DNA of 64,000 bases from Candidatus Latescibacterota bacterium (GTDB lineage Bacteria; Latescibacterota; UBA2968; GCA-2709665), in contig OZ220733.1 in NCBI GenBank assembly GCA_965116875.1, positions 1,248,001 to 1,312,000 on the forward strand. The letters run 5' to 3'. Both the position numbers and the translations under genes were made by a program. Under the pieces are notes generated by a model. It had not been told where the DNA came from. It did not search any database and worked only from the letters and a program-made list of their open reading frames with translations. Shown here piece after piece: positions 12,028 to 21,139 of this stretch. The number at the start of each line of letters is the position of its first letter. Position 1 is the first letter of the stretch.

Positions 12028-13158
12028 ATGGAGCGGTTCGGAAAGCTGGAGCTGGACTACCTGGCGGAAGTGATCGCCAGCGGGTCGCTGAACAGCAAGA
12101 CCGGGAAATTCACGACCCGGCTGGAGGAGCGATTCGCTGCGTGGGTGGGGGCGGAATACGCTTTGGCAATGAACAGTGCGATGAGTGTGCTGCACACGGC
12201 CGTGGCCGCGGCCGGCGTTGGACCGGGCGTGGAAGTCGTCTGCGATCCCGTGGTCCACTTCGGCGGCGCAGCGGTGATGTATCACAACGGGGTGCCTGTA
12301 TTCTGCGACATCGATGAGGACAGCTGGAATATGGATCCCGATTCGCTCGAGGCGTGCATCACGGAACACACGGGCGCCGTCATCTGCACGCCGATGTGGG
12401 GAAACCCGCCGGATTACGAGGGGATTCTCCGGGTGGCGAACAGATATGGACTCCCTGTGATCGAAGACGTGGCGCACGGCGTCGGGGGTTCGTACAGAGG
12501 CAGGCCCCTGGGAACGCTGGGGTCGATCGGTTCATTCAGTTTTCAGGAGGCCAAGCACCTCACCAGCGGAGACGGCGGCATGGCGGTAACCGACCGGGCC
12601 GACCTGGTCGAAAAAATGTTGGAAATGAGGATCATCAAAACGACCCTGGGTTGGAATTACCGAATGACGGAACTGCAGGCCGGGGTGATGCTGGCGCAGA
12701 TGGACAGGGCCGACGGGATCATTTCGGCGCACCACAAGGCGGGGGCGCTCTACTGCGAAGCCGCAAGGGAGGCGCCATGGCTGGTGCCGCAGCGTGTGCC
12801 GGACGGGTGCGTCAACGCCTGCCACGCGGTCGCGTTCCGGTTCGAAGGCGACCGCGAGGGGATATCGGTGGAGCGTTTTCAAAAGACCATGGTCGAACAC
12901 GGATGTCCGGTCTCGATCGGATACAAGAGACGCTCCGCCGCCGAAGATCCGATCTTCACGGAGGTCCTGGCGTACGGCAAAGGGTGCCCCATCCGTTGCC
13001 CCCATTACGCGGGCAGCGCACGCTACGGAAAGGGAGTGACCCCGGTGGCCGATCGCGCGGTGCCCCGCATGGTCGTGATGCCAATGGACGTGTATACACC
13101 CGGAAAGACCGAGGAGTACGCGGAACGGATCCAGGCGGGGTTGCGCGCACTTGCGTGA
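12028..13158 (+). CDS. DegT/DnrJ/EryC1/StrS family PLP-dependent aminotransferase
   Basis: RBS AAGGAGG; PVFCDID, VIEDVAH, FSFQEAKHLTSGDGG (PLP Lys), GWNYRMTELQAG. Confidence 0.9.
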   Translation: MERFGKLELDYLAEVIASGSLNSKTGKFTTRLEERFAAWVGAEYALAMNSAMSVLHTAVAAAGVGPGVEVVCDPVVHFGGAAVMYHNGVPVFCDIDEDSWNMDPDSLEACITEHTGAVICTPMWGNPPDYEGILRVANRYGLPVIEDVAHGVGGSYRGRPLGTLGSIGSFSFQEAKHLTSGDGGMAVTDRADLVEKMLEMRIIKTTLGWNYRMTELQAGVMLAQMDRADGIISAHHKAGALYCEAAREAPWLVPQRVPDGCVNACHAVAFRFEGDREGISVERFQKTMVEHGCPVSIGYKRRSAAEDPIFTEVLAYGKGCPIRCPHYAGSARYGKGVTPVADRAVPRMVVMPMDVYTPGKTEEYAERIQAGLRALA

Positions 13159-13190
13159 TCGATGGGCGAGGAGGGATAGAACGGCGGGGT

Positions 13191-14051
13191 TCAGTGCCCG
13201 TGCTGCGCTTCCGTACCATGAACGGCGCTGGATTCAACGAAGTAAAGGGCGTAGGCGAGACCGATTCCCACGAGAAGGGATGCGATGAGTTTGCCGCGAT
13301 CATGGCTGTGGAAGTGGATCTCGGGAAGCAGATCGCTCAGCGCGATGCACAGAAACGCGCCCGCGGCAAACGCAAGCACGTAGCCGATAACCGAGCCGTC
13401 GTCCAGGCCGAGCAGCCCCAGGCCCCAGAAACTGGCGAGAGCCACCAGCGGGCACAGCATGGCGAACGCGAAATTGGCCGCCGCACGCGCGCGCGCGCTG
13501 AATCCCCCGAACTTCATCATGCCGATGATGGAGTACGCATCGAGCGGCTTGTGAAGGAGGATTGCGAGGAAGACGCCGAGGGCGGGCAGCGCGCCACCGT
13601 CTTCATGCGGCGAACTGATCCGCATGCTGGTGCCCAGTGCGACGCCTTCGGTGATGGTATGCACGCCCAGGCCCATGGCAACCCCTACCAGGCTGCCCGA
13701 ATGTCCGATGGAGCCACCGTGGTCGTGATGTTCGTGCAGTTCGCCGGCTTCATCGCTGAAGTCGTGCTGATGGAAGTGGAACACGCGTAGCAGGAAGATC
13801 ATCAGGACCATGCCGAAAACCACCCACGCGACGGCTTTCTCCACGTTTCCCGGTCCGGTAATCCGTTCGAGACTGTGCGGCAAGAGGTGGTACATGGCGA
13901 TGCCGAGGATAAAACCCGCCACGAGGCTCATCAGTATCTGGATTTTCGTGTGGGTCATGGATCCCAGGACGGCCAGTTTCCCGCCGGCAAAGGAAACGGC
14001 AAAGATTCCCAGTGAATATCCCGATATGATGAGCAAACTGTCTGAATCCAC
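13191..14051 (-). CDS. ZIP (ZupT-like) divalent metal transporter
   Basis: Multi-TM; His-rich loop HFHQHD...HEHHDH; HTITEGVALG, AILLHKPLD, DLLPEIHFHSHD; probable GTG start at 14051. Confidence 0.88.
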   Translation of the reverse strand: MDSDSLLIISGYSLGIFAVSFAGGKLAVLGSMTHTKIQILMSLVAGFILGIAMYHLLPHSLERITGPGNVEKAVAWVVFGMVLMIFLLRVFHFHQHDFSDEAGELHEHHDHGGSIGHSGSLVGVAMGLGVHTITEGVALGTSMRISSPHEDGGALPALGVFLAILLHKPLDAYSIIGMMKFGGFSARARAAANFAFAMLCPLVALASFWGLGLLGLDDGSVIGYVLAFAAGAFLCIALSDLLPEIHFHSHDRGKLIASLLVGIGLAYALYFVESSAVHGTEAQHGH

Positions 14052-14089
14052 GATGACCTGACCTTGCGTTGACTTCGATTGATTTCCAG

Positions 14090-14206
14090 TTCGGCGCCCG
14101 CGGACGAAGGTACCCAACGGGTCCGCCGGTCGTGACGATTTCCATGCGAGACACAGCTTCCGAAGCGTCCGTGTGAATCCTCGCAGTGGTCGACCAAGGC
14201 GCCGAA
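14090..14206 (-). other. Candidate structured RNA element upstream of the ZIP gene
   Basis: 9-bp closing stem (14090-14098/14198-14206) enclosing a GCGGAC/GTCCGC hairpin and a long interrupted hairpin. Confidence 0.35.
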
Positions 14207-14222
14207 TCACCGGAATTTTTCA

Positions 14223-14261
14223 GGGGCAACCCTCACTTCCGGCGCCGGGTTGCCCCCTTTT
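14223..14261. terminator. Stem-loop between the membrane-protein gene and the ZIP leader
   Basis: GGGGCAACCC/GGGTTGCCCC 10-bp stem; the T-run is on the + strand side, so it is weak as a terminator for the minus-strand operon. Confidence 0.35.
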
Positions 14262-14290
14262 GTCATTTGCCCGTATCGAACCGTTGCGAC

Positions 14291-14779
14291 TCAGAAGAAC
14301 AGCATCAGGAGCAGGATACTGCTCATCCCGCCCAGCATAAACCCGCCTATGCTGACCGCGCCGGAAACCAATGAATAGTCGGCGATACGAAACGTCTGTT
14401 CGCCCAACGTAAAGAGCACCTGGGTCCGATTGATTTCCCTATCCGCGAAATGTTTCAATGCCTCTTCGGCGCTGTGCGCCTCCTTGACAGAGACCATCGC
14501 GACAAGAATCATCGTGATCGCGGACGCCAGGGTCCCGGTTGCAAATACGAGCAACGTCGCCAGCGCAAGCCAGTGATAGGCCGCGTCTTCGACTCCGGAG
14601 GGCGAACTCATGAATCCGATGATCAATGCCGCGCCGCCCGCATTGCCCAAAAGCAGCAGGCGGGCAGACTCCGTAATCAGCCTGAACATCGTGCCGCGCC
14701 GCATATGGACGACCTTGTAGAGTTCCCGCAGCCACTCTTCGCCGATTTCTTCGGCCGAAAATTCATCCACCTTTTTCAA
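14291..14779 (-). CDS. Hypothetical membrane protein (about 3 TM)
   Basis: TTG start 3 nt after SBP stop with GGAGGAG RBS; hydrophobic LLLLGNAGGAALIIGF and two more TM segments. Confidence 0.7.
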   Translation of the reverse strand: MKKVDEFSAEEIGEEWLRELYKVVHMRRGTMFRLITESARLLLLGNAGGAALIIGFMSSPSGVEDAAYHWLALATLLVFATGTLASAITMILVAMVSVKEAHSAEEALKHFADREINRTQVLFTLGEQTFRIADYSLVSGAVSIGGFMLGGMSSILLLMLFF

Positions 14780-14782
14780 CGG

Positions 14783-15937
14783 TCATTCTCCTCCGAGATC
14801 GATCAATCTGACGTATCGGGAACCGGTGTTGGTTCCAGGTCCGAAGGCGAGGGTCCAATCGTCAATCGCTATCGGTCCGGACGTCAATGCCTGTTGCAGG
14901 AAATGCTCCCGCGTCAACGTCTCGCCCATGCGGTTCAGCACCTCGATGACGAAACGGCCCAGAATGTATCCCTCGAGGGACACCTCGTTGACGCCATACT
15001 CCCCGTCGTCCGCGCGGCTTGCAGAGTCCGTGGCCGCCATGGCCCGGTGAAAGCTCCTGACCACCCGCATGCCAGTGTCGTCCGCATCCGGCATCACCTC
15101 GGAAACCAGAATTCTGTTGCTCGGCGCTTCGATCCTCTTCTTCAACTCGTAGGACAGAACGAACGACAGATTGGCCATAATGTATCTGTGGCCGAGAGAG
15201 TGCGCCAGGTTGATTATTTCAGAATTGGACGCATACGCGCCGACGATCATGATGGCCTCAAGGTCGGCCTTGGCCAGGCCGAACAGGCTGGCCTGGACGG
15301 CGTGTGTGTTTCGAGAGAATGCGGTCTTCGCCAGAATGGGGATTCCTTTTCCGTCGAGAACCGACTTGTAGTTCTTCAGGACGGAACGACCGAACGCGTC
15401 GTCCTGATAGATGATGCCGAACCGCTTCTTGCCGCGCTTCCTCAGAATGTGATTTACCAGTACGCGGGTCTCGTCCAGATAGCCCGCTCTGAGGTTGATG
15501 ACGTTTGGAAACCGTCTGGCATTGCGCAGGAAGGCGGCGCCGGTAAAGGGGCCCACGAAGGGTATTTTTGCAGATTTCAATACCGGCGCGATGCGTTTCG
15601 CCGTGGGCGTACCCACGCCGCCGATAACGGCAAAAACGTCGTCCCCGGAAGCGAATCGCTCCGCGTTGGCGGCCGCCAGTTCAGGCTCGTAGGCATCGTC
15701 CAGAGAAATAAGCCTGAGCGCCCTGCCGTTGACGCCGCCCCCGCGGTTCACTTCGAAAAAGGCCGCACGAATACCGGCCCGGTAGTTGAATCCCAACTGT
15801 CTGTTCGGCCCGGAGAAACACGCGCTCTGGCCGAAGACAATCGTCGTATCGATGACACCTTGCGCCGCCTGGGACGTCGCGACCGGCAGCAGGGCGAGCC
15901 AGAATACCCATAGCCCACTGACGATGTGTGCCGCCAT
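14783..15937 (-). CDS. Type I periplasmic solute-binding protein (LivJ/Peripla_BP_6 family)
   Basis: Signal peptide; FGQSACFSGP, NRGGGVNGR, LDDAYEP, GGVGTPTA, PFTGA, IYQDDAFG. Confidence 0.85.
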   Translation of the reverse strand: MAAHIVSGLWVFWLALLPVATSQAAQGVIDTTIVFGQSACFSGPNRQLGFNYRAGIRAAFFEVNRGGGVNGRALRLISLDDAYEPELAAANAERFASGDDVFAVIGGVGTPTAKRIAPVLKSAKIPFVGPFTGAAFLRNARRFPNVINLRAGYLDETRVLVNHILRKRGKKRFGIIYQDDAFGRSVLKNYKSVLDGKGIPILAKTAFSRNTHAVQASLFGLAKADLEAIMIVGAYASNSEIINLAHSLGHRYIMANLSFVLSYELKKRIEAPSNRILVSEVMPDADDTGMRVVRSFHRAMAATDSASRADDGEYGVNEVSLEGYILGRFVIEVLNRMGETLTREHFLQQALTSGPIAIDDWTLAFGPGTNTGSRYVRLIDLGGE

Positions 15938-15967
15938 TCGCTACCCTCTTCCCGAGGCGTGCCACAT

Positions 15968-17398
15968 TTACTTCGACGTGGCGCCACCCTCCCCCTTCTT
16001 TGCCGGCTTGCCGGCAGCTACGTCCTGCTTCTCCTGATTGGCGGCGGCCGTCGCTTTCTTGCCCTTCCTGGGGCCGACCTTCGTTTTCTTCACGGATTTG
16101 ACGCCGGGCGTTGCCTGCGTCGTCGACCTGGCATCCTCCTCTGGGAGTACCTCCACCATCGGCTTTTCCTGCTCCTGCCGGCTGAACCGTTTGCCGCGCA
16201 CAACGTGGCTGTGGGAGAATATCGAAGGTGTGTCGAAGATGAGCGACCGGGGGTTGGCCACGTCCAGGTGATCGCGTTCCGCGCGCACTCTGTGGAATTG
16301 GCCGTCGAACGTGAGTCTGTCCTCATCGACGTTTTCAATCCTATGTATATCGGGCATTTGCGTTGAAGATAACGCCATCCTGCCGTCCGCACGGCCGGTC
16401 CCGGAAGGTTGCTTCCCCAGGGCCAGATCGGCCGGCGTGAAACCCTCGCCCGCGCCGTCAATCATGTTAATGTCGATGGACGACTGATTGGCCGGGTTGA
16501 CCGCCGCCAGGCTCGCCTCGGAGAAGATCTTCCGCATTCGGTCCCAATAGCGCGTGATACGTACGTGCGAAGGCATTTTCCTGTATTCGCCCAGCAGTGC
16601 GGTGAACGCCCCCGCGCTGCTCTTCGCCTGCACGACCCGTTCAGACGCCCTGGCCTTTGCTTCCAATACCAGCGCCTCCGCCTGTCCACGGCTGCGCGCG
16701 ATCAGCTGCTCCTTCTGTCGATTTGCGTCGCTTACCGCCTTCGCGCGCTCCGCGAACGCATCGCTGACGTCCCGGAACGCGGCGATGGTTTCTTCGATGG
16801 GTCGCACGTCGACGATGTCGAGCGATATGAGCTCTATCCCGATGTCGCGGTTCTCAAGCCATGCGGTAATCCTGTCGAACAGCCTGCTCTGGATTATGTT
16901 TCGATTGGAGGTGAGAATCAGATCGATGAAGTTCTCACCCAGGACGTCGATAAGCTCTTCCCTGGTGTAAACGGTCAGCATCGCGATGGGATCGCTGGAG
17001 ACAAACAGGAAATTTCCGAGATTATCGATCCGGTACTGAAGCGCGACGTCCACCTCAAGCAGATTCACGTCCCCGGACAATAGGGTAAAATTAACTTTGC
17101 TGCCTTCCCTGCTGGATACCTGGTATCGAATAACCCGCTTGACCTTGCGGATGTGTACCTTGTCGATGATCGGAATGCAATAGCGAATTCCCGGGCGGAC
17201 GTTGGCTTTCACGACTCTGCCGAACCGCAGGACGACGCCGAGTTCTTCCTTCTTCACAATGTACAGTCCGCTGGCCAGAATGCAGACGACAACCGCGGCA
17301 GCGGTCCAGACGATGATTCGCCGCCGGTGTTTCGAGCAATAATCGAATATGGTGTAGATGATCCGCGTACTCCGCGGCAATGACGACTGTTCGCTCAT
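15968..17398 (-). CDS. HflK-like SPFH/Band-7 protein with long C-terminal extension
   Basis: N-terminal TM, GVVLRFGRV, LLSGDVNLLEV, AFRDVSDA, ARSRGQAE coiled coil; Lys-rich tail. Confidence 0.85.
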   Translation of the reverse strand: MSEQSSLPRSTRIIYTIFDYCSKHRRRIIVWTAAAVVVCILASGLYIVKKEELGVVLRFGRVVKANVRPGIRYCIPIIDKVHIRKVKRVIRYQVSSREGSKVNFTLLSGDVNLLEVDVALQYRIDNLGNFLFVSSDPIAMLTVYTREELIDVLGENFIDLILTSNRNIIQSRLFDRITAWLENRDIGIELISLDIVDVRPIEETIAAFRDVSDAFAERAKAVSDANRQKEQLIARSRGQAEALVLEAKARASERVVQAKSSAGAFTALLGEYRKMPSHVRITRYWDRMRKIFSEASLAAVNPANQSSIDINMIDGAGEGFTPADLALGKQPSGTGRADGRMALSSTQMPDIHRIENVDEDRLTFDGQFHRVRAERDHLDVANPRSLIFDTPSIFSHSHVVRGKRFSRQEQEKPMVEVLPEEDARSTTQATPGVKSVKKTKVGPRKGKKATAAANQEKQDVAAGKPAKKGEGGATSK

Positions 17399-17416
17399 TT
17401 CGACCGGTCTCTGGAT

Positions 17417-18307
17417 TTATCGTGGAGTGGTTCTGCTGTTGAGGTACTTGAACAACTCATTGTCGGCCGGCAGCATCAACGTGGTGTTCCGGTCGATAAT
17501 CAGGTCATAGCTGTCCAGGGCGCGGATGAAGCTGTAGAATCCCGGGTCCTGCCGGTATGCCTTGCCCAGCACCGCCATCGCCTCCGCCTCGGCCTTGCCG
17601 AGGATGGCGGTGGCCTCCGCATGCGCGTCGGCCAGCAGCTTTTCGTGTTCGTTAATGGCCAGGGCCTCGATTCGAAGGGCCATTTCCTCTCCCTCGCTGC
17701 GGTATCGGGCGGCAATGCGGGCGCGTTCCGCGATCATGCGCTGAATGACGCTGGGACGGTTCTCACTCGGCAGGGTGTATTCGACGATTCCCGCCTCGAT
17801 GACCTCGATGCCGTAGCTTTCTCTGGCAATTGGCGCGATTCTGGCGTGTATTTCACGCGAAGCCTCGTTCAGGTCTTCGTGTTCCAGGCCCAGCCCGATA
17901 AAGGCGTCCAGGGCCTTGTTGCTGATGATGATCCCGCTGCTGGACAGATAGAGGTCCTGCAAGCGCTCAACGGCGTTCTTCCCGGTGCGTATCGCCTCGA
18001 CGAACAGAATGGGGTCCACCGTCCGCCACAGCAGGTACCCGTCGACGCGCACGCTTTTCTGATCGTCGGTAATCAACTCGTGAGGCATGTCGGTCAGCGT
18101 ATGAATACGCCGGTCCACCTTGTAAATCCTGGAGATGGGACGGGGCCACTTCAGATGCAATCCCGGTTGTCTGACCGGCGGCGAAATCCTGCCGAAGTGC
18201 GTCAGTACGCCCTGCTGGGTCTCGTGGATAATGTAGATGCTGTCGTAGACGATTGCGCCGGCAAGCACGGCGATGGCCGCCGTAATCGTGGCTTTCTTGA
18301 GCGTCAT
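17417..18307 (-). CDS. HflC-like SPFH/Band-7 protein
   Basis: N-terminal TM, PGLHLKWP, ITDDQK, RMIAERARIAARYRSEGEE, DPGFYSFIRALDSY. Confidence 0.88.
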   Translation of the reverse strand: MTLKKATITAAIAVLAGAIVYDSIYIIHETQQGVLTHFGRISPPVRQPGLHLKWPRPISRIYKVDRRIHTLTDMPHELITDDQKSVRVDGYLLWRTVDPILFVEAIRTGKNAVERLQDLYLSSSGIIISNKALDAFIGLGLEHEDLNEASREIHARIAPIARESYGIEVIEAGIVEYTLPSENRPSVIQRMIAERARIAARYRSEGEEMALRIEALAINEHEKLLADAHAEATAILGKAEAEAMAVLGKAYRQDPGFYSFIRALDSYDLIIDRNTTLMLPADNELFKYLNSRTTPR

Positions 18308-18448
18308 TGCCTTTCCCCGTAAGTGAGGGCGTGCAGGTTGCGCGTGTGAGATCGACCCGCCGACCCGGTGCGGTTCTGGTTTACCGGTCGCCAACCGAAT
18401 GGCGTGGAATCCGGGGCTCCATCCCGTAGTTGGATTGCATACATGAAA

Positions 18449-20770
18449 TTACCGCGTTCGCTTTTTGGCGGCCTTTTTTCCGTGGCCGGACGGCGGGCCG
18501 TGGTTGGCTCCGGAGGTCTTCTTCTTCCACAGGGCGACCTTTTCGAGGCTCTTCTTGTTGGGAACGATGATCTTGGGGTTTCCGGCCAACGCCGTTTCCA
18601 GCTTCTCCCGCCAGAGCATGTTCCGCAGGACGCCCGGCGCGGTTCTGACGGCCCTGGAGACCGTGGATATGGCATCCGCCTCAGCGGCAGCTGTCTTGAC
18701 TTTCCGATAGGCTTCGCCGTCGGCCTGCTGTACCTCCCACGCCGCGTTTCCATGCGCCTGGGGCACCAGCGATACAAGGAAGCGCTGCGCATTGACAATA
18801 ATCCGCTCCCGGTCTTCCTGAGCGCTGGAAACGTCCCTGAAAGCGCTCATGGTCTCCGCCACCGGACTCACGTCCAGCAGATTGACCTTGACGATTTCAA
18901 CGGTTTTCAGTACCGAATTCGCAAAGTGCACGTCCACGTCGAAGGAACGGGTGAGATGATCTTCGAGCGTTGCGCGGTGCACGTTCAGCATTCTTTCGAG
19001 GTCCCGGGCGGAGATAAACGAACGCACGTGGGCTTTGACGACGTCGGCGATGACTTTCTGCGGGTCTTCCGTCCGATAATGATAGACGTAGGGATCCTTG
19101 ACCCTGTATTGCACGTTGACGGTAAGAGAGATCAGGTTGAGGTCGCCGGACACGTATTCTTCAGGCGTCTCACAAAGGATGGACTTCACTTCCCGCACAG
19201 GCCATTTGTCGACTTTGACGAACGGCCATGGGGCGAGATAGCTCAGCCCCGGCTGGACGTCGCGCCAGTAGACCTCGCCGAGAAGCCGGCCGTAACCCAC
19301 AGAATTGGGAGGTATGATTGTGAATCCGCTGGCCAGGAACAGGACGAGAAGGAATCCCCAGATCAACTTGCCCAACGGCGTGGCGGGAGAGATGATTCCC
19401 CTGAAGCTTCGCCTGCGGGTGAGGCGCTCCCAGGCCTGACCCCACGATTTCGCCAGAGGCCGTACGTTGAGCAGCAGGTCCTCCCAGCCGCTGCGGAGCG
19501 CGCCGGCCCGAAAACGCCAGACGATGAGAGCGACGAGAACCAGCGCCGAGCCCCACTGCAAAAATTGTATCGTCGGCGATTCGGAGGGGCCGAGGTATAG
19601 CGGGATCGTCAGGCCGGTGGCCAGAAGCAGCGCGTCGATCACGATACCGAGTGCAACTGTGACCGCGATCACCGCCGCTACGTATATGGTAGCGAAACGT
19701 GCCCCGAACTGGCTGACGATAATCGCGATCGTACCGGTATTGGTGGCGGGCCCGGTCATCAGAAAGATCAGCGCCGCACCGGGGCTGAATCCCTTTGCGA
19801 CGAGGGCCGCGGCGATCGGCGTGCTTGCCGATGCGCAGATATAGAGAGGAACGCCGACCAGCACCATGACGGGATAGGAGACCCAGCGCGCATACTCGTT
19901 TGTCATCAGGTCGCCCGGTATGACCAGAAAGAGCACTCCGCCCAGGGCCACGCCAACCAGCAGCGCAAAGAGGATGTCGTCCGCAATCTCCACGAAACCG
20001 TAGTGGAAGACGTGCTTCACCAGCTTCTTGAAGTCGAGTGCGTGATCCTCCGTGGACGTGTCTCCCGTGGAAGCCTTTCCGGCCTCCTCAGCCTCCAGCG
20101 CGTCACGGTAGAAGGTCGGTTTCACCCAGGAAAGGGACTTCCAGCGGCCGGCCACCGTGACGACGCCCTTCAGCCACTGTACGAAAAGGCCCTTCAATCT
20201 AGAAAAGCTTACGTAGCAGTCGTCGGTCTCGGGAATGAGGGGCTCGTGCGAACCGTGATCGTGGTCATGATCGTGCCCGTGGTCATGGTCATGATCGTGA
20301 TCATGGTCGTGTTCTTCGTGGCTATGGTCCGATCCGGCTACGCCATGGTCGTTACGTATAAGGCCGATGCAAAAGATGCCGGCGACGACGGCCGTGATGA
20401 AGCTGATCACCGGACGCACGACCGCGGCGACAAATCCGAAGAAGGCGTTCGTGACAAGAATCGAGTCCGCCCCCGTCTCCGGCGCGGTTATCAGGAACGA
20501 CATGCAGGACGAACGGGATGCGCCTTTCCTGCGCATCTCGGCAACCACGGGTACAACGGAACAACTGCACAACGGCACGGGGACGCCCACGGCCGAACTC
20601 ACGGCAACGGATTTCAGGCTGTCGTCCTTGAGCCACCTGAGGATGGCCTCACGGGAGATAAACACATGGATCAGGCCCGAGAGGAACAACCCCAGCAACA
20701 GCATGGGCGCCAGGAGCAAACCGGACATCCAGAGAAAGTCGAAGAAACTGACCAGCGTCTGCTGTACCAC
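18449..20770 (-). CDS. DUF318/ArsP (SO_0444-like) permease with His-rich loop fused to a C-terminal SPFH (HflK-like) domain
   Basis: GVPVPLCSCSVVP, FLITAPETGADS, GVPLYICASASTPIAAALVAKGFSPGAALIFLMTGPATN; then PGLSYLAPWP, SGDLNL, AFRDVSSAQEDR, PQAHGNA; continuous ORF; RBS GGAGG before GTG. Confidence 0.88.
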   Translation of the reverse strand: MVQQTLVSFFDFLWMSGLLLAPMLLLGLFLSGLIHVFISREAILRWLKDDSLKSVAVSSAVGVPVPLCSCSVVPVVAEMRRKGASRSSCMSFLITAPETGADSILVTNAFFGFVAAVVRPVISFITAVVAGIFCIGLIRNDHGVAGSDHSHEEHDHDHDHDHDHGHDHDHDHGSHEPLIPETDDCYVSFSRLKGLFVQWLKGVVTVAGRWKSLSWVKPTFYRDALEAEEAGKASTGDTSTEDHALDFKKLVKHVFHYGFVEIADDILFALLVGVALGGVLFLVIPGDLMTNEYARWVSYPVMVLVGVPLYICASASTPIAAALVAKGFSPGAALIFLMTGPATNTGTIAIIVSQFGARFATIYVAAVIAVTVALGIVIDALLLATGLTIPLYLGPSESPTIQFLQWGSALVLVALIVWRFRAGALRSGWEDLLLNVRPLAKSWGQAWERLTRRRSFRGIISPATPLGKLIWGFLLVLFLASGFTIIPPNSVGYGRLLGEVYWRDVQPGLSYLAPWPFVKVDKWPVREVKSILCETPEEYVSGDLNLISLTVNVQYRVKDPYVYHYRTEDPQKVIADVVKAHVRSFISARDLERMLNVHRATLEDHLTRSFDVDVHFANSVLKTVEIVKVNLLDVSPVAETMSAFRDVSSAQEDRERIIVNAQRFLVSLVPQAHGNAAWEVQQADGEAYRKVKTAAAEADAISTVSRAVRTAPGVLRNMLWREKLETALAGNPKIIVPNKKSLEKVALWKKKTSGANHGPPSGHGKKAAKKRTR
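20256..20315 (-). repeat. Hexanucleotide tandem repeat encoding the (HD)n tract
   Basis: About 10 RTGRTC-like units encoding EHDHDHDHDHGHDHDHDH. Confidence 0.8.
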
Positions 20771-20913
20771 GCAATTGCCTCCAGTGCATTGACTGATGCA
20801 AAGGGCAGTCTGGTAGGCGATTCAGAAACCGGGAACGAACGGCGTCGCACACAGTGTTGTATCGACCGTCATGCTTGCCGACAGAAACGGACGCACCGAT
20901 TTCCGGAGCGGCA

Positions 20914-20964
20914 ATAATAACGGTACGTATATTTCAAGTCAAGGACTTTATATTAAATAATATA
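20914..20964 (-). promoter_or_regulatory. Promoter of the permease-SPFH operon with upstream AT-rich palindrome
   Basis: TTGACT (20937-20942)-17 nt-TATTAT (20914-20919); TATATTA-N2-TAATATA at 20949-20964. Confidence 0.6.
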
Positions 20965-21139
20965 GTGGATTCTATGTCCGCTGCAAGAGGACGAATTCAA
21001 ACTGGAAGTGTTTTCTTTCGGCCGTTCCGACAGGACAGCGGCGGCAGGCCGATTTCGGATTCGAAACACGTCCCGGGCGGGCGGTCGCGGCGTTGCAGGG
21101 CGCAGAGGCCCGACGTCGGCTCGGCATTCGTCTCCGGGC

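Follow-up and report, generated by a model that had tools for sequence, protein, structure and literature searches.

Related systems

The HflK/HflC cage of Escherichia coli is a 12+12 assembly. The locus described here resembles the HflK/HflC-FtsH system (PDB 7vhp, 7wi3, 9cz2) in combining HflK-type and HflC-type N-anchored periplasmic SPFH subunits specified by adjacent genes; alignments of its HflK-type parts with E. coli HflK begin at the anchor and reach the C-terminal region, and their fold is closest to that of HflK. It differs in possessing three subunit types rather than two, in the replacement of the N-terminal tail of HflK by a permease of about 420 residues in one of them, and in that both HflK-type parts score under the curated hflK cut-off. 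Furthermore, neither ftsH nor hflX belongs to the locus, and the genome has a canonical pair of its own.

The permease is like the SO_0444 transporters (Shewanella oneidensis) in its NF033936 score and paired Cys motifs. Characterised members of that family are stand-alone permeases, whereas this one has an SPFH domain, two partner genes and accessories. Under stress by ZnSO4 or CuCl2 the cell requires SO_0444 (PMC3219624), and in Nitratiruptor Cd and Cu induce another protein of the family (PMC10092412). Literature searches revealed no transport measurement for any fused member.

By its description, the PA2434-PA2439 cluster of Pseudomonas aeruginosa (hmtA, PA2437, PA2438, PA2439) likewise places three HflC/HflK-family genes beside a metal transporter, which, unlike the permease of this locus, is an unfused P-type ATPase importer. 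Loss of znuA raises PA2437-PA2439 9- to 14-fold, and a weak Zur site belongs to these genes (Table 2 of PMC4542158); the PA2438 and PA2439 proteins are up under Zn depletion (excerpt of PMC11761036). In 251 genomes of the order around G156 only housekeeping hflKC was found at E<=1e-30.

Stomatin, and also prohibitin with the m-AAA protease, offers a further likeness in that a patch of membrane is enclosed by a ring of SPFH subunits, with which carriers or channels associate (PMC13724742). The clients of these eukaryotic cages are non-covalent, the subunit types number one or two and the cage lies on the cytosolic face, whereas in the present locus the client forms part of an SPFH polypeptide and the proposed ring would face the periplasm. 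QmcA of E. coli also faces the cytoplasm, unlike the SPFH parts of this locus, which are predicted to be periplasmic from charge and hydropathy. The SPFH-NfeD pair QmcA-YbbJ (PDB 8z5g) does resemble the locus in that an SPFH protein has an adjacent, dedicated small membrane partner, and in sequence QmcA ranks second among solved relatives. Pfam and NCBIfam scans of the module gave no match to the NfeD family.

Organization of the locus

Six open reading frames on the minus strand span positions 13191-20770 of the window, as we call the whole 64,000-nucleotide stretch that was analyzed. Coordinates and family matches agree with an earlier sequence-only reading of this DNA, which had described six same-strand genes in the order below, with gaps of 18, 30 and 3 nt after the HflC-like gene; the coordinates yield these same gaps. 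In order of transcription they are:

18449-20770, minus strand: permease-SPFH fusion gene, 773 aa
17417-18394, minus strand: HflC-like gene, 325 aa as called; TIGR01932
15968-17398, minus strand: HflK-like gene, 476 aa; N-in anchor, SPFH domain, coiled coil and long C-terminal tail
14783-15937, minus strand: type I periplasmic binding protein gene, 384 aa; Peripla_BP_6, signal peptide
14291-14779, minus strand: three-helix membrane protein gene (TM3), 162 aa; no known family
13191-14210, minus strand: ZIP transporter gene, 339 aa; PF02535, His-rich loop

The true start of the HflC-like gene is probably the ATG at 18310, giving a product of 297 aa, because relatives outside the closest genus all align only from residue 50. 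Similarly, the ZIP start may lie further inside its ORF, since relatives align from residue 39-54. The earlier statement that neither ftsH nor hflX lies nearby holds for ftsH throughout the genome: the sole Peptidase_M41 (FtsH) match in its 5.45 Mb is at 4,147,156, about 2.9 Mb from the module. For hflX it extends to the ten flanking ORFs scanned, among which neither gene was present.

Upstream of the cluster two features could be recognized:

20914..20942, minus strand: predicted sigma-70-like promoter, TTGACT-17-TATTAT, with 10/12 matches
20945..20966, minus strand: AT-rich inverted repeat, core TATATTA-TT-TAATATA, directly upstream of the -35 hexamer; candidate operator

This is the only minus-strand promoter site upstream of the cluster, and it is conserved in an alignment of close relatives. 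The inverted-repeat block is kept in eight close relatives, full-length and truncated alike. A conserved leader of about 140 nt follows the promoter; an Rfam scan of the leader gave no family match.

The permease-SPFH fusion

The product of the first gene has three parts:

19511..20770, minus strand: permease domain of SO_0444/ArsP_1 type, residues 1-420; PF03773, NF033936
19310..19510, minus strand: basic linker (residues 421-468) and HflK-type membrane anchor (469-487), from hydropathy, charge and AlphaFold helices
18449..19309, minus strand: HflK-like SPFH domain, coiled coil and C-terminal assembly region, residues 488-773; PF01145

Residues 17-379 match PF03773 [ArsP_1] with 155 bits, and residues 20-418 score 321.4 bits against NF033936 [SO_0444 family Cu/Zn efflux transporter], for which the cut-off is 300; a Bradyrhizobium fusion scores 373.4. 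The CSC (C68-S69-C70) and CASAS (C312...) motifs and the His-rich loop (approximately residues 144-176) noticed in the sequence-only reading are all present, and C68, C70 and C312 are invariant in alignments of 86 close sequences and 107 divergent fusions. A sequence search of solved structures with the permease domain found none. The linker loop (419-468) contains 11 K/R residues and, in the AlphaFold model, a helix at 424-451; W418, R419, G423, A424 and N435, in and around it, are invariant in the 86-sequence alignment.

PF01145 [Band_7] covers residues 505-661. Against TIGR01933 [hflK] the fusion scores 138.9 bits, under the cut-off of 159.4; residues 473-741 align with E. coli HflK 87-348 (4e-16), and the best Foldseek matches of the fused SPFH part are the HflK chains 7vhq_E and 9cz2_XA. 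The full-length model, which is silent on oligomers, is moderately confident (pLDDT 64.4, pTM 0.43), with pLDDT >80 across approximately residues 480-640. The fused SPFH part is as strongly conserved as the permease, at 57-91% identity. For all three SPFH proteins of the locus a periplasmic location is predicted from charge distribution.

One might suspect that a lost stop codon or a mis-join has simulated a fusion of two genes. Some long-read assemblies have internal stops within the gene, and a few short relatives on long contigs (P0137, P0138, P0140 and P0146) consist of the SPFH part only. Against this, hundreds of full-length fusions are found across phyla. Both PF03773 and PF01145 occur in 116 of the 120 best relatives. 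Among the best 147 representatives at 50% identity, 114 match both domain HMMs, with the permease first in every one (114/114), and 105 are full-length fusions (>=650 aa). Over 16077-20250, a stretch that spans the domain junction, contig X2 of a different study shows full identity, so the in-frame fusion is not confined to one assembly and recurs in an independent run. Because of these widespread fusions, the identical independent contig and the conserved linker with its invariant residues we regard an artefact as ruled out, its residual likelihood being negligible.

The HflC-like and HflK-like partners and the housekeeping pair

The HflC-like protein exceeds the cut-off of TIGR01932 (154.6 bits against 134.4), has its N-terminal anchor at residues 3-21 of the 297-aa form and is 63-88% identical across phyla. 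The free HflK-like protein falls under that of TIGR01933 (152.4 against 159.4); its anchor, N-in, comprises residues 28-46, and residues 27-351 align with E. coli HflK 79-401 (2e-31). Its tail bears a motif recognized in the alignment:

16205..16303, minus strand: HflK-like tail motif DG.FH..R.ERDH...PRSLIFD.PSIFSH.H, residues 366-398

This RSLIFD-type motif is present in all 37 clade members examined (37/37) and absent from the distant homologue L023, whose locus is also without the binding protein and the three-helix protein.

These are not the only hflKC-like genes of the genome. A separate, canonical adjacent hflK-hflC pair is found at about 5.098 Mb, with 270.6 (hflK) and 222.9 bits (hflC). 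In the tree the three SPFH proteins of the module form clades of their own, apart from the housekeeping proteins (support: HflC 100, HflK 99, fused SPFH 100), and identical sister pairs recur in all three. The module HflC clade is sister to housekeeping HflC (support 97), while both HflK-type clades join housekeeping HflK in a three-way fork at SH-aLRT 89 in a quick search with 50 rows.

All three proteins have HflK and HflC, the known partners of FtsH, as their closest relatives, which raises a rather unlikely but possible alternative, that the triad still encloses the FtsH of the cell, the permease being a tethered, built-in substrate or passenger. The protease would then govern permease turnover or the access control of the cage, and the client would still be a protease. 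This genome does have one FtsH. In three of the five genomes with divergent triads (G411, G412 and G414) the HflC of the triad is the only one at E<=1e-10, and there the triad may take the usual place beside FtsH; against this, the three genomes are metagenome bins and may be incomplete. The two downstream proteins of the divergent loci are, moreover, 28-48% identical to the housekeeping pair of this genome. On the other hand, a separate canonical hflKC is kept here, in the other two divergent-triad genomes (G410 and G413) and in G002 and G003; long stems separate the module clades from the housekeeping clades; and there is no ftsH in or beside the module in the window.

Synteny, joint loss and transfer

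The order fusion, HflC-like, HflK-like, binding protein and TM3 on one strand is kept in 59 of the 61 loci with at least 4.3 kb of downstream sequence, from at least eight phyla. In the divergent fused loci an HflC-like and then an HflK-like gene stand behind the fusion in 16 of 17 cases; the seventeenth contig ends within the HflC-like gene.

In the genus of the window the fusion is cut in 5 of 15 genomes, at residue 632, 534 (twice), 493 and 456. The truncated loci examined from this phylum lack the four following genes, and the ZIP gene adjoins the permease. The SPFH part has thus been lost repeatedly from a permease that was kept, which shows that the permease can do without the scaffold. 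That the SPFH genes and the permease work as a unit is shown by their strict synteny, the congruence of the sub-trees and their joint loss.

It is doubtful that the fused SPFH part forms no closed cage and acts locally on its own permease in the manner of stomatin, with the downstream pair making up an ordinary HflK/HflC-like complex apart from it, linked to it by co-regulation alone. In favour of this, no stem in the tree is longer than that of the fused SPFH clade (2.64), and association of SPFH proteins with transporters is found in other systems: the fold matches include PDB 9zd2_E, aquaporin 1 bound to stomatin, and the stomatin proteome includes solute carriers (PMC13724742). The fused part nevertheless retains coiled-coil and C-terminal regions that can be aligned up to residue 348 of E. 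coli HflK, and its conservation equals that of the permease. HflK-type proteins are, to our knowledge, partners of HflC and not solitary units, and the fusion, HflC-like and HflK-like genes were never found apart in loci with sequence.

The module is passed on horizontally: compared among one trio of genomes from different phyla, its proteins share 46-76% identity, against 34-41% for housekeeping HflK/HflC. It is carried in runs labelled sponge and coral-reef metagenome.

Accessory genes and metal context

The binding protein matches Peripla_BP_6 with 153.4 bits, and its nearest solved relative is 4kv7_A (9.5e-43). Neither the six genes nor the ten flanking ORFs include ABC permease or ATPase genes for it, and its alignment has no conserved Cys or His cluster. 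The 162-aa protein (AlphaFold pLDDT 82.3) possesses three long helices; its cytoplasmic N-terminal segment is acidic and highly conserved. It matches no Pfam family and, in the Atlas, only unnamed clusters; a fold search with it gave generic helical bundles alone (best Z 11.4). The ZIP protein scores 67.8 bits against PF02535 (cut-off 35.1). In 33 of 59 loci its gene comes next after the module, and in deletion variants it stays beside the permease.

The flanks of 54 loci contain RND pumps (29), CusB-like adaptors (30), outer-membrane factors (22), ZnuA (16), ZnuB-type ABC-3 proteins (15), ABC ATPases (20) and P1B ATPases with an HMA domain (7), and a TonB-dependent receptor precedes one distant triad. 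The sequence-only reading had asked whether other transporters such as P1B ATPases occupy the slot of the permease; for this clade the idea found no support, its SPFH domain being seen only behind an SO_0444 permease. Export by the fused permease is predicted from one family name and one fitness study, and the neighbouring ZIP and ZnuABC are importers.

A small membrane protein, a binding protein and a large permease together recall the layout of TRAP and TTT systems. By this analogy the module might be a tripartite secondary uptake system, which would take up a metal or metal chelate under scarcity while the SPFH ring holds the parts together. The binding protein without adjoining ABC partner genes would suit such a system, as would the adjoining ZIP genes, the ZnuA genes in 16 of the 54 clustered flanks, the TonB-dependent receptor before the distant triad and the three-SPFH cluster of P. 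aeruginosa beside the importer HmtA, which is up under zinc depletion (excerpts of PMC4542158 and PMC11761036). We think it improbable. The permease exceeds the curated cut-off of an efflux family. The binding protein, with no Cys/His cluster, resembles amino-acid binders, and for the small protein there is no match to a family of either TRAP or TTT systems: DctQ/DctM/DctP and TctB/TctA/TctC were absent from Pfam and NCBIfam scans of the six proteins. Both are lost with the scaffold while the permease remains, and both are late additions, because they are absent from all 17 divergent triads and from L023.

A proposed permease-bearing SPFH assembly

We give a probability of roughly 0.5 to the reading that the locus is a transferable Zn/Cu homeostasis module, the core of which is a dedicated three-subunit HflK/HflC-type SPFH assembly with one permease-bearing subunit. 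This reading builds on domain make-up, paralogy, synteny, joint transfer and loss, and metal context. The SO_0444-type export permease is an N-terminal extension of one HflK-type subunit. Its C-terminus would be cytoplasmic and joined by the conserved basic linker, some 50 residues long, to a membrane anchor like that of HflK. As in E. coli HflK/HflC, the periplasm would contain the SPFH, coiled-coil and C-terminal regions of the three proteins.

By homology to the E. coli proteins, the three may co-assemble into a cage with the permease as client. Around such a ring or vault the HflC-like subunit would alternate with HflK-type subunits, which may be free or bear a permease; closure of the ring would depend on the free HflK-like subunit diluting the bulky fused one. 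The ring would set apart an area of inner membrane to which the permeases are tethered, and would thereby control the surroundings, activity or lifetime of the exporter. Of the caged transporter proposed in the sequence-only reading, the fusion and the dedicated SPFH set are borne out. Its further claim, that the client is a permease rather than a protease, is weakened, because the HflC of the triad is the sole one in three of the five divergent genomes and FtsH is present here.

The binding protein, the three-helix protein and the His-bearing tail of the free HflK-like subunit would have been gained together in the clade of the window, and they behave as accessories of the scaffold and not of the permease. 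A bolder version, which we consider a long shot, is a self-contained periplasmic SPFH vault with a metal exporter as built-in client, in which exported metal enters an enclosed space and is handled or sensed by the binding and three-helix proteins. The His-bearing tail might there recruit the binding protein, like a cargo-loading peptide. Were this true, the module would be a protein-walled periplasmic metal-handling compartment passed horizontally among many phyla that share a habitat. As a widespread, unstudied arrangement, the permease-SPFH fusion with its two further SPFH genes is a natural test case for the effect of bacterial scaffold cages on the membrane proteins they hold.

Gene content and upstream region

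The sequence-only reading had described six same-strand genes separated, after the HflC-like gene, by gaps of 18, 30 and 3 nt, and the ORF coordinates together with the Pfam and NCBIfam names agree with it on both counts. The anatomy of the cluster and of its upstream region is as follows.

18449–20770, minus strand: permease-SPFH fusion, 773 aa; ArsP_1 / NF033936, then Band_7/SPFH in the same chain
17417–18394, minus strand: HflC-like protein, 325 aa; hflC 154.6 bits (cut-off 134.4)
15968–17398, minus strand: free HflK-like protein, 476 aa; hflK 152.4 bits, below the cut-off of 159.4
14783–15937, minus strand: binding protein, 384 aa; Peripla_BP_6
14291–14779, minus strand: 3-helix protein, 162 aa; without a family in Pfam or NCBIfam
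13191–14210, minus strand: ZIP transporter, 339 aa; PF02535
20942–20914, minus strand: sigma-70-like promoter, TTGACT(N17)TATTAT
20945–20966, minus strand: AT-rich inverted repeat preceding the promoter-like site

The permease part of the fusion scores 321.4 bits against NF033936 (cut-off 300), the SO_0444 family of Cu/Zn efflux transporters, and contains the features noticed earlier: the motifs CSC and CASAS, whose Cys residues are invariant, and a loop rich in His. The nearest family to the SPFH part is HflK (138.9 bits, below the cut-off of 159.4). Databases label the fusion plainly as an SO_0444 transporter. Because relatives of the HflC-like protein beyond the closest genus align only from residue 50, its true start is probably the ATG at 18310.

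The promoter-like site is the sole one of its kind upstream of the cluster on this strand, and alignment shows that both it and the inverted repeat are kept in close relatives. The leader (20771–20966, minus strand), which extends from the promoter-like site to the start codon, is also conserved in close relatives and has a GC-rich hairpin-like stretch immediately before the Shine-Dalgarno sequence; a search of Rfam for a riboswitch gave no family match to it. The single Rfam hit, mir-598 (E 0.017, 20251–20311), is spurious and sits on a His-codon repeat. This His-Asp codon repeat of the permease loop (20251–20317) forms a long imperfect hairpin which leads to terminator-like calls on the plus strand, and it was treated as a repeat, and skipped, when sequencing runs were compared. 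A scan for Zur boxes, based on a short motif, found one upstream of the fusion in 8 of 78 loci against a shuffled mean of 4.8 and maximum of 10, which is not significant; perfect palindromes occurred at two loci of other genomes, L072 and L093. In the window the cluster is flanked by unrelated sugar-modification and other genes.

Occurrence of the fusion

That the fusion was made by assembly is excluded by an identical contig from another study and by the wide occurrence of such fusions. Contigs of sequencing run X2 match the window exactly over 13100–16018 and 16077–20250, the latter stretch spanning the junction of the permease and SPFH domains, and fusions occur in more than 100 sequence clusters; the architecture is thus not peculiar to this assembly, as the sequence-only reading had allowed that it might be. 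Over the conserved CSC segment (20417–20687) the summed contig depth in X2 reaches 385, compared with about 8 elsewhere, which means that the segment has close relatives in many other organisms of the sample.

A search of 5.8 billion proteins returned 552 matches; 116 of the best 120 possess both Pfam domains, at 61–93% identity. With the SPFH part alone as query (238 matches) the best 120 show the permease as partner domain, and no other domain accompanies the SPFH part in these 120 chains, apart from an additional ZIP domain in one protein, P0022. Short relatives with the SPFH domain only are few (56), many of them on short contigs. P0022 (796 aa, covering 76% of the query) carries PF02535 [ZIP] besides the permease and SPFH domains and may have arisen when an in-frame deletion joined the fusion and the ZIP gene downstream of it. 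A library of representatives clustered at 50% identity contains 8733 matching proteins. Among the best 147, both domain HMMs are matched by 114, always with the permease first, and 105 of the 114 are at least 650 aa long and 25–62% identical to the window protein. The architecture is therefore old and diverse, extending over more than one clade.

Gene order and joint loss

Scanning species-representative genomes gave 575 relatives, from which the best 80 loci were kept. A full-length fusion is present in 66, and 61 of these have at least 4.3 kb of downstream sequence. The order fusion, HflC-like, HflK-like, binding protein and 3-helix protein, on one strand, holds in 59 of the 61 (Pseudomonadota 22, Latescibacterota 12, Acidobacteriota 8, Gemmatimonadota 5, Verrucomicrobiota 2, Dadabacteria 2, Spirochaetota 1, Binatota 1, unplaced bins 6); the exceptions are L063, without the HflC-like gene and with a split fusion, and L087, without the binding protein and the 3-helix protein. 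Behind the 59 modules a ZIP gene is found in the same orientation 27 times and in the opposite one 6 times; 26 loci have none. Crude ORF calls give a 4-nt overlap between the fusion and HflC-like genes in 19 loci. At L088 (13747–17582), in an alphaproteobacterial bin, an insert of about 2.7 kb splits the binding-protein gene into pieces at 13747–14157 and 16908–17582; an intact 3-helix gene comes next.

In the 15 genomes of the window's genus, within a sample of 151 genomes of the phylum, the fusion gene is full length in 10 and cut in 5, at residue 632, 534 (twice), 493 or 456. At the truncated loci fetched from the phylum (L053, L092, L098, L101 and L110) the four genes behind the fusion are missing, remnants of the 3-helix gene persisting in L101 and L110, and the ZIP gene adjoins the permease in all five. 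In other genera the permease has about 441 residues, with ZIP immediately behind it. Loss of the SPFH part has thus happened repeatedly and together with that of the next four genes, and the permease and ZIP stay.

Divergent triads and accessory genes

When divergent fusions were aligned and used for another scan, 17 fused loci were identified, in Myxococcota, Zixibacteria, Burkholderiales, Tectimicrobiota, Planctomycetota, Holophagales, Acidobacteriota and the cultured strain Bradyrhizobium erythrophlei GAS478. The HflC-like and then the HflK-like gene stand behind the fusion on the same strand in 16; the seventeenth contig ends within the HflC-like gene. The binding protein and 3-helix protein are absent from all 17 and from L023, a distant triad in a Multivoraceae bin. 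Judged by gene content, the core of the module is the triad of fusion, HflC-like and free HflK-like proteins. An importer dependent on the binding protein, a protein missing from the divergent loci, seems to us improbable.

In the window's clade the free HflK-like protein has a conserved His-bearing motif in its C-terminal tail, found in 37 of 37 aligned clade members and not in L023. L023 lacks this motif as well as the two proteins, and the tail, the binding protein and the 3-helix protein therefore seem to have been added later, as one set. Among solved structures the closest to the binding protein is 4kv7_A; it resembles binders of the Leu/Ile/Val type and shows no conserved Cys or His cluster. 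The 3-helix protein possesses a strongly conserved acidic N-terminal segment and a good model (pLDDT 82.3); a wide structure search with it gave generic helical bundles only (best Z 11.4, below the meaningful level for helical proteins), and the Atlas unnamed clusters only. Complex prediction for binding protein residues 28–383 with HflK-like tail residues 345–415 (score 0.00, mark 0.32, partner fold uncertain) speaks neither for nor against binding.

The B. erythrophlei GAS478 fusion reaches 373.4 bits against SO_0444 and 158.9 against hflK, and its partners 177.7 (hflC) and 221 (hflK). Just upstream of that fusion (L186:4776–6903) are a formamidase-like gene and an extra HflC-like gene (TIGR01932, 147.8 bits), which brings the SPFH genes at this locus to four. 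At L023 (6584–9724) the fusion is immediately preceded by a TonB-dependent receptor gene, and behind the triad come genes for an MFS transporter and a MacB/FtsX-type permease.

Paralogy and phylogeny of the SPFH proteins

The window's genome (one contig of 5.45 Mb) has seven Band_7 matches, three of them in the module. It had been considered that these might be the genome's only hflKC; an adjacent hflK (270.6) and hflC (222.9), far over the curated cut-offs, lie outside the module. The other two are a weak match under the family cut-off and a flotillin-like protein (FloT-like, 504 aa, at about 643 kb, 641526–645065). The canonical pair (C1:5096468–5100950) is bordered on one side by a PfkB-family sugar kinase-like gene with recG and on the other by a 313-aa ORF (weak flagellinolysin match) and then a dephospho-CoA kinase gene; no hflX was found among the ORFs scanned around it. 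The fusion itself is the sole ArsP_1 permease. The single FtsH is encoded 2.9 Mb from the module, in keeping with the earlier remark that no ftsH lies nearby.

In a tree of 50 SPFH proteins, taken from six genomes plus six other loci (quick search, SH-aLRT support), the module proteins stand apart from housekeeping hflKC, in clades of their own. The HflC-like clade (100) is sister to housekeeping HflC (97); the clade of free HflK-like proteins (99) and that of the fused SPFH parts (100, stem length 2.64) join housekeeping HflK only in an undivided three-way fork (89). The sister pairs G002/L043, G004/L065 and L055/L072 repeat in all three module clades, and the three SPFH genes therefore share one history. 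When three genomes from different phyla are compared, identity is 46–76% for the module proteins and 34–41% for housekeeping HflK/HflC, a pattern that points to joint inheritance and horizontal spread of the module.

The main rival explanation is that the ring still encloses FtsH, the permease being its passenger or substrate. Of five genomes that have divergent triads, G410 and G413 yielded a second hflC, and in G411, G412 and G414, metagenome bins of unknown completeness, the triad HflC is the sole one found; these three speak for coupling of the ring to FtsH. We give this explanation perhaps one chance in four.

Predicted structure

The AlphaFold model of the fusion is moderate overall (pLDDT 64.4) and good over the SPFH domain; it comprises, in order, the permease helices, a helix at 424–451, a membrane helix at 465–480, and the SPFH sheet with long helices. 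Loop 419–468 holds 11 Lys/Arg and so is predicted to be cytoplasmic, with the SPFH part periplasmic; N-in anchors are predicted for the free HflK-like and HflC-like proteins. No solved structure was matched by the permease sequence. The alignment of the HflK-type parts with E. coli HflK begins at the anchor and reaches the C-terminal region (E 2e-31 free, 4e-16 fused). In the Foldseek ranking HflK chains come first, followed by QmcA, stomatin, erlin, prohibitin, flotillin and vault. Stomatin-like local action of the SPFH part, with no common ring, is unlikely in our view.

Metal context and habitat

SO_0444 is needed under ZnSO4 or CuCl2 stress (PMC3219624), and Cd and Cu induce another member of the family (PMC10092412). 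In other genomes the flanks of the module (54 loci) include RND pumps (29), CusB-like adaptors (30), outer-membrane factors (22), ABC ATPases (20), ZnuA (16), ZnuB-type permeases (15) and P1B ATPases with an HMA domain (7).

Four runs were compared with the window. X3 and the RNA library X11, both with the label sponge metagenome, and X5, with the label coral reef metagenome, contain relatives at 88–99% identity. Short contigs of X11, at 96–98% identity, fall within four genes, those for the fusion, the HflC-like and HflK-like proteins and the binding protein, which is compatible with their expression; DNA may occur in such libraries, and uncovered parts carry no meaning.

Relation to known systems and significance

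SPFH cages with membrane-protein clients are already known: HflK/HflC with FtsH, prohibitin with the m-AAA protease, and stomatin with carriers (PMC13724742); to our knowledge FtsH is the only well-studied bacterial client. We found no description of a permease-SPFH fusion, or of the module, in the literature searched; PMC2636767 and PMC13086221 make no mention of fused transporters. PMC4222105 is irrelevant, the SPFH gene there being in a phage. Pseudomonas aeruginosa has a zinc-responsive three-SPFH cluster adjoining the metal importer HmtA (PMC4542158, PMC11761036), which may or may not be related to the module. HflC paralogues of intermediate type beside other transporters were sought in 251 genomes of the order around genome G156, and the four loci inspected held housekeeping hflK-hflC pairs only.

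We put at about 0.5 the probability that this is a transferable Zn/Cu module with a three-subunit HflK/HflC-type hetero-oligomer at its core, one subunit of which carries the permease, and that the ring tethers and fences the exporter. It would thereby set the exporter's environment, activity or lifetime. The analysis shows the anatomy, paralogy, joint inheritance, joint loss and metal context of the module; we infer the assembly, geometry and effect of the ring.

The module addresses the wider question of how bacterial SPFH cages act on membrane proteins inside them. In this natural fusion a small-solute permease is joined, as client, to one cage subunit, with two dedicated partner subunits adjacent; the arrangement occurs in over 100 sequence clusters and in a cultured strain at least once (B. 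erythrophlei GAS478). In such a defined system one could directly measure the stoichiometry, how the ring affects transport and turnover, and whether the client lies within it or outside. The deletion series within one genus, from the full module to the permease alone, offers a natural comparison. Its interest lies in this combination of a covalently defined client, an easily scored phenotype (Zn/Cu tolerance), natural deletion variants and a cultured carrier; its pattern of spread marks the module as a transferable trait in metal-rich host-associated communities.
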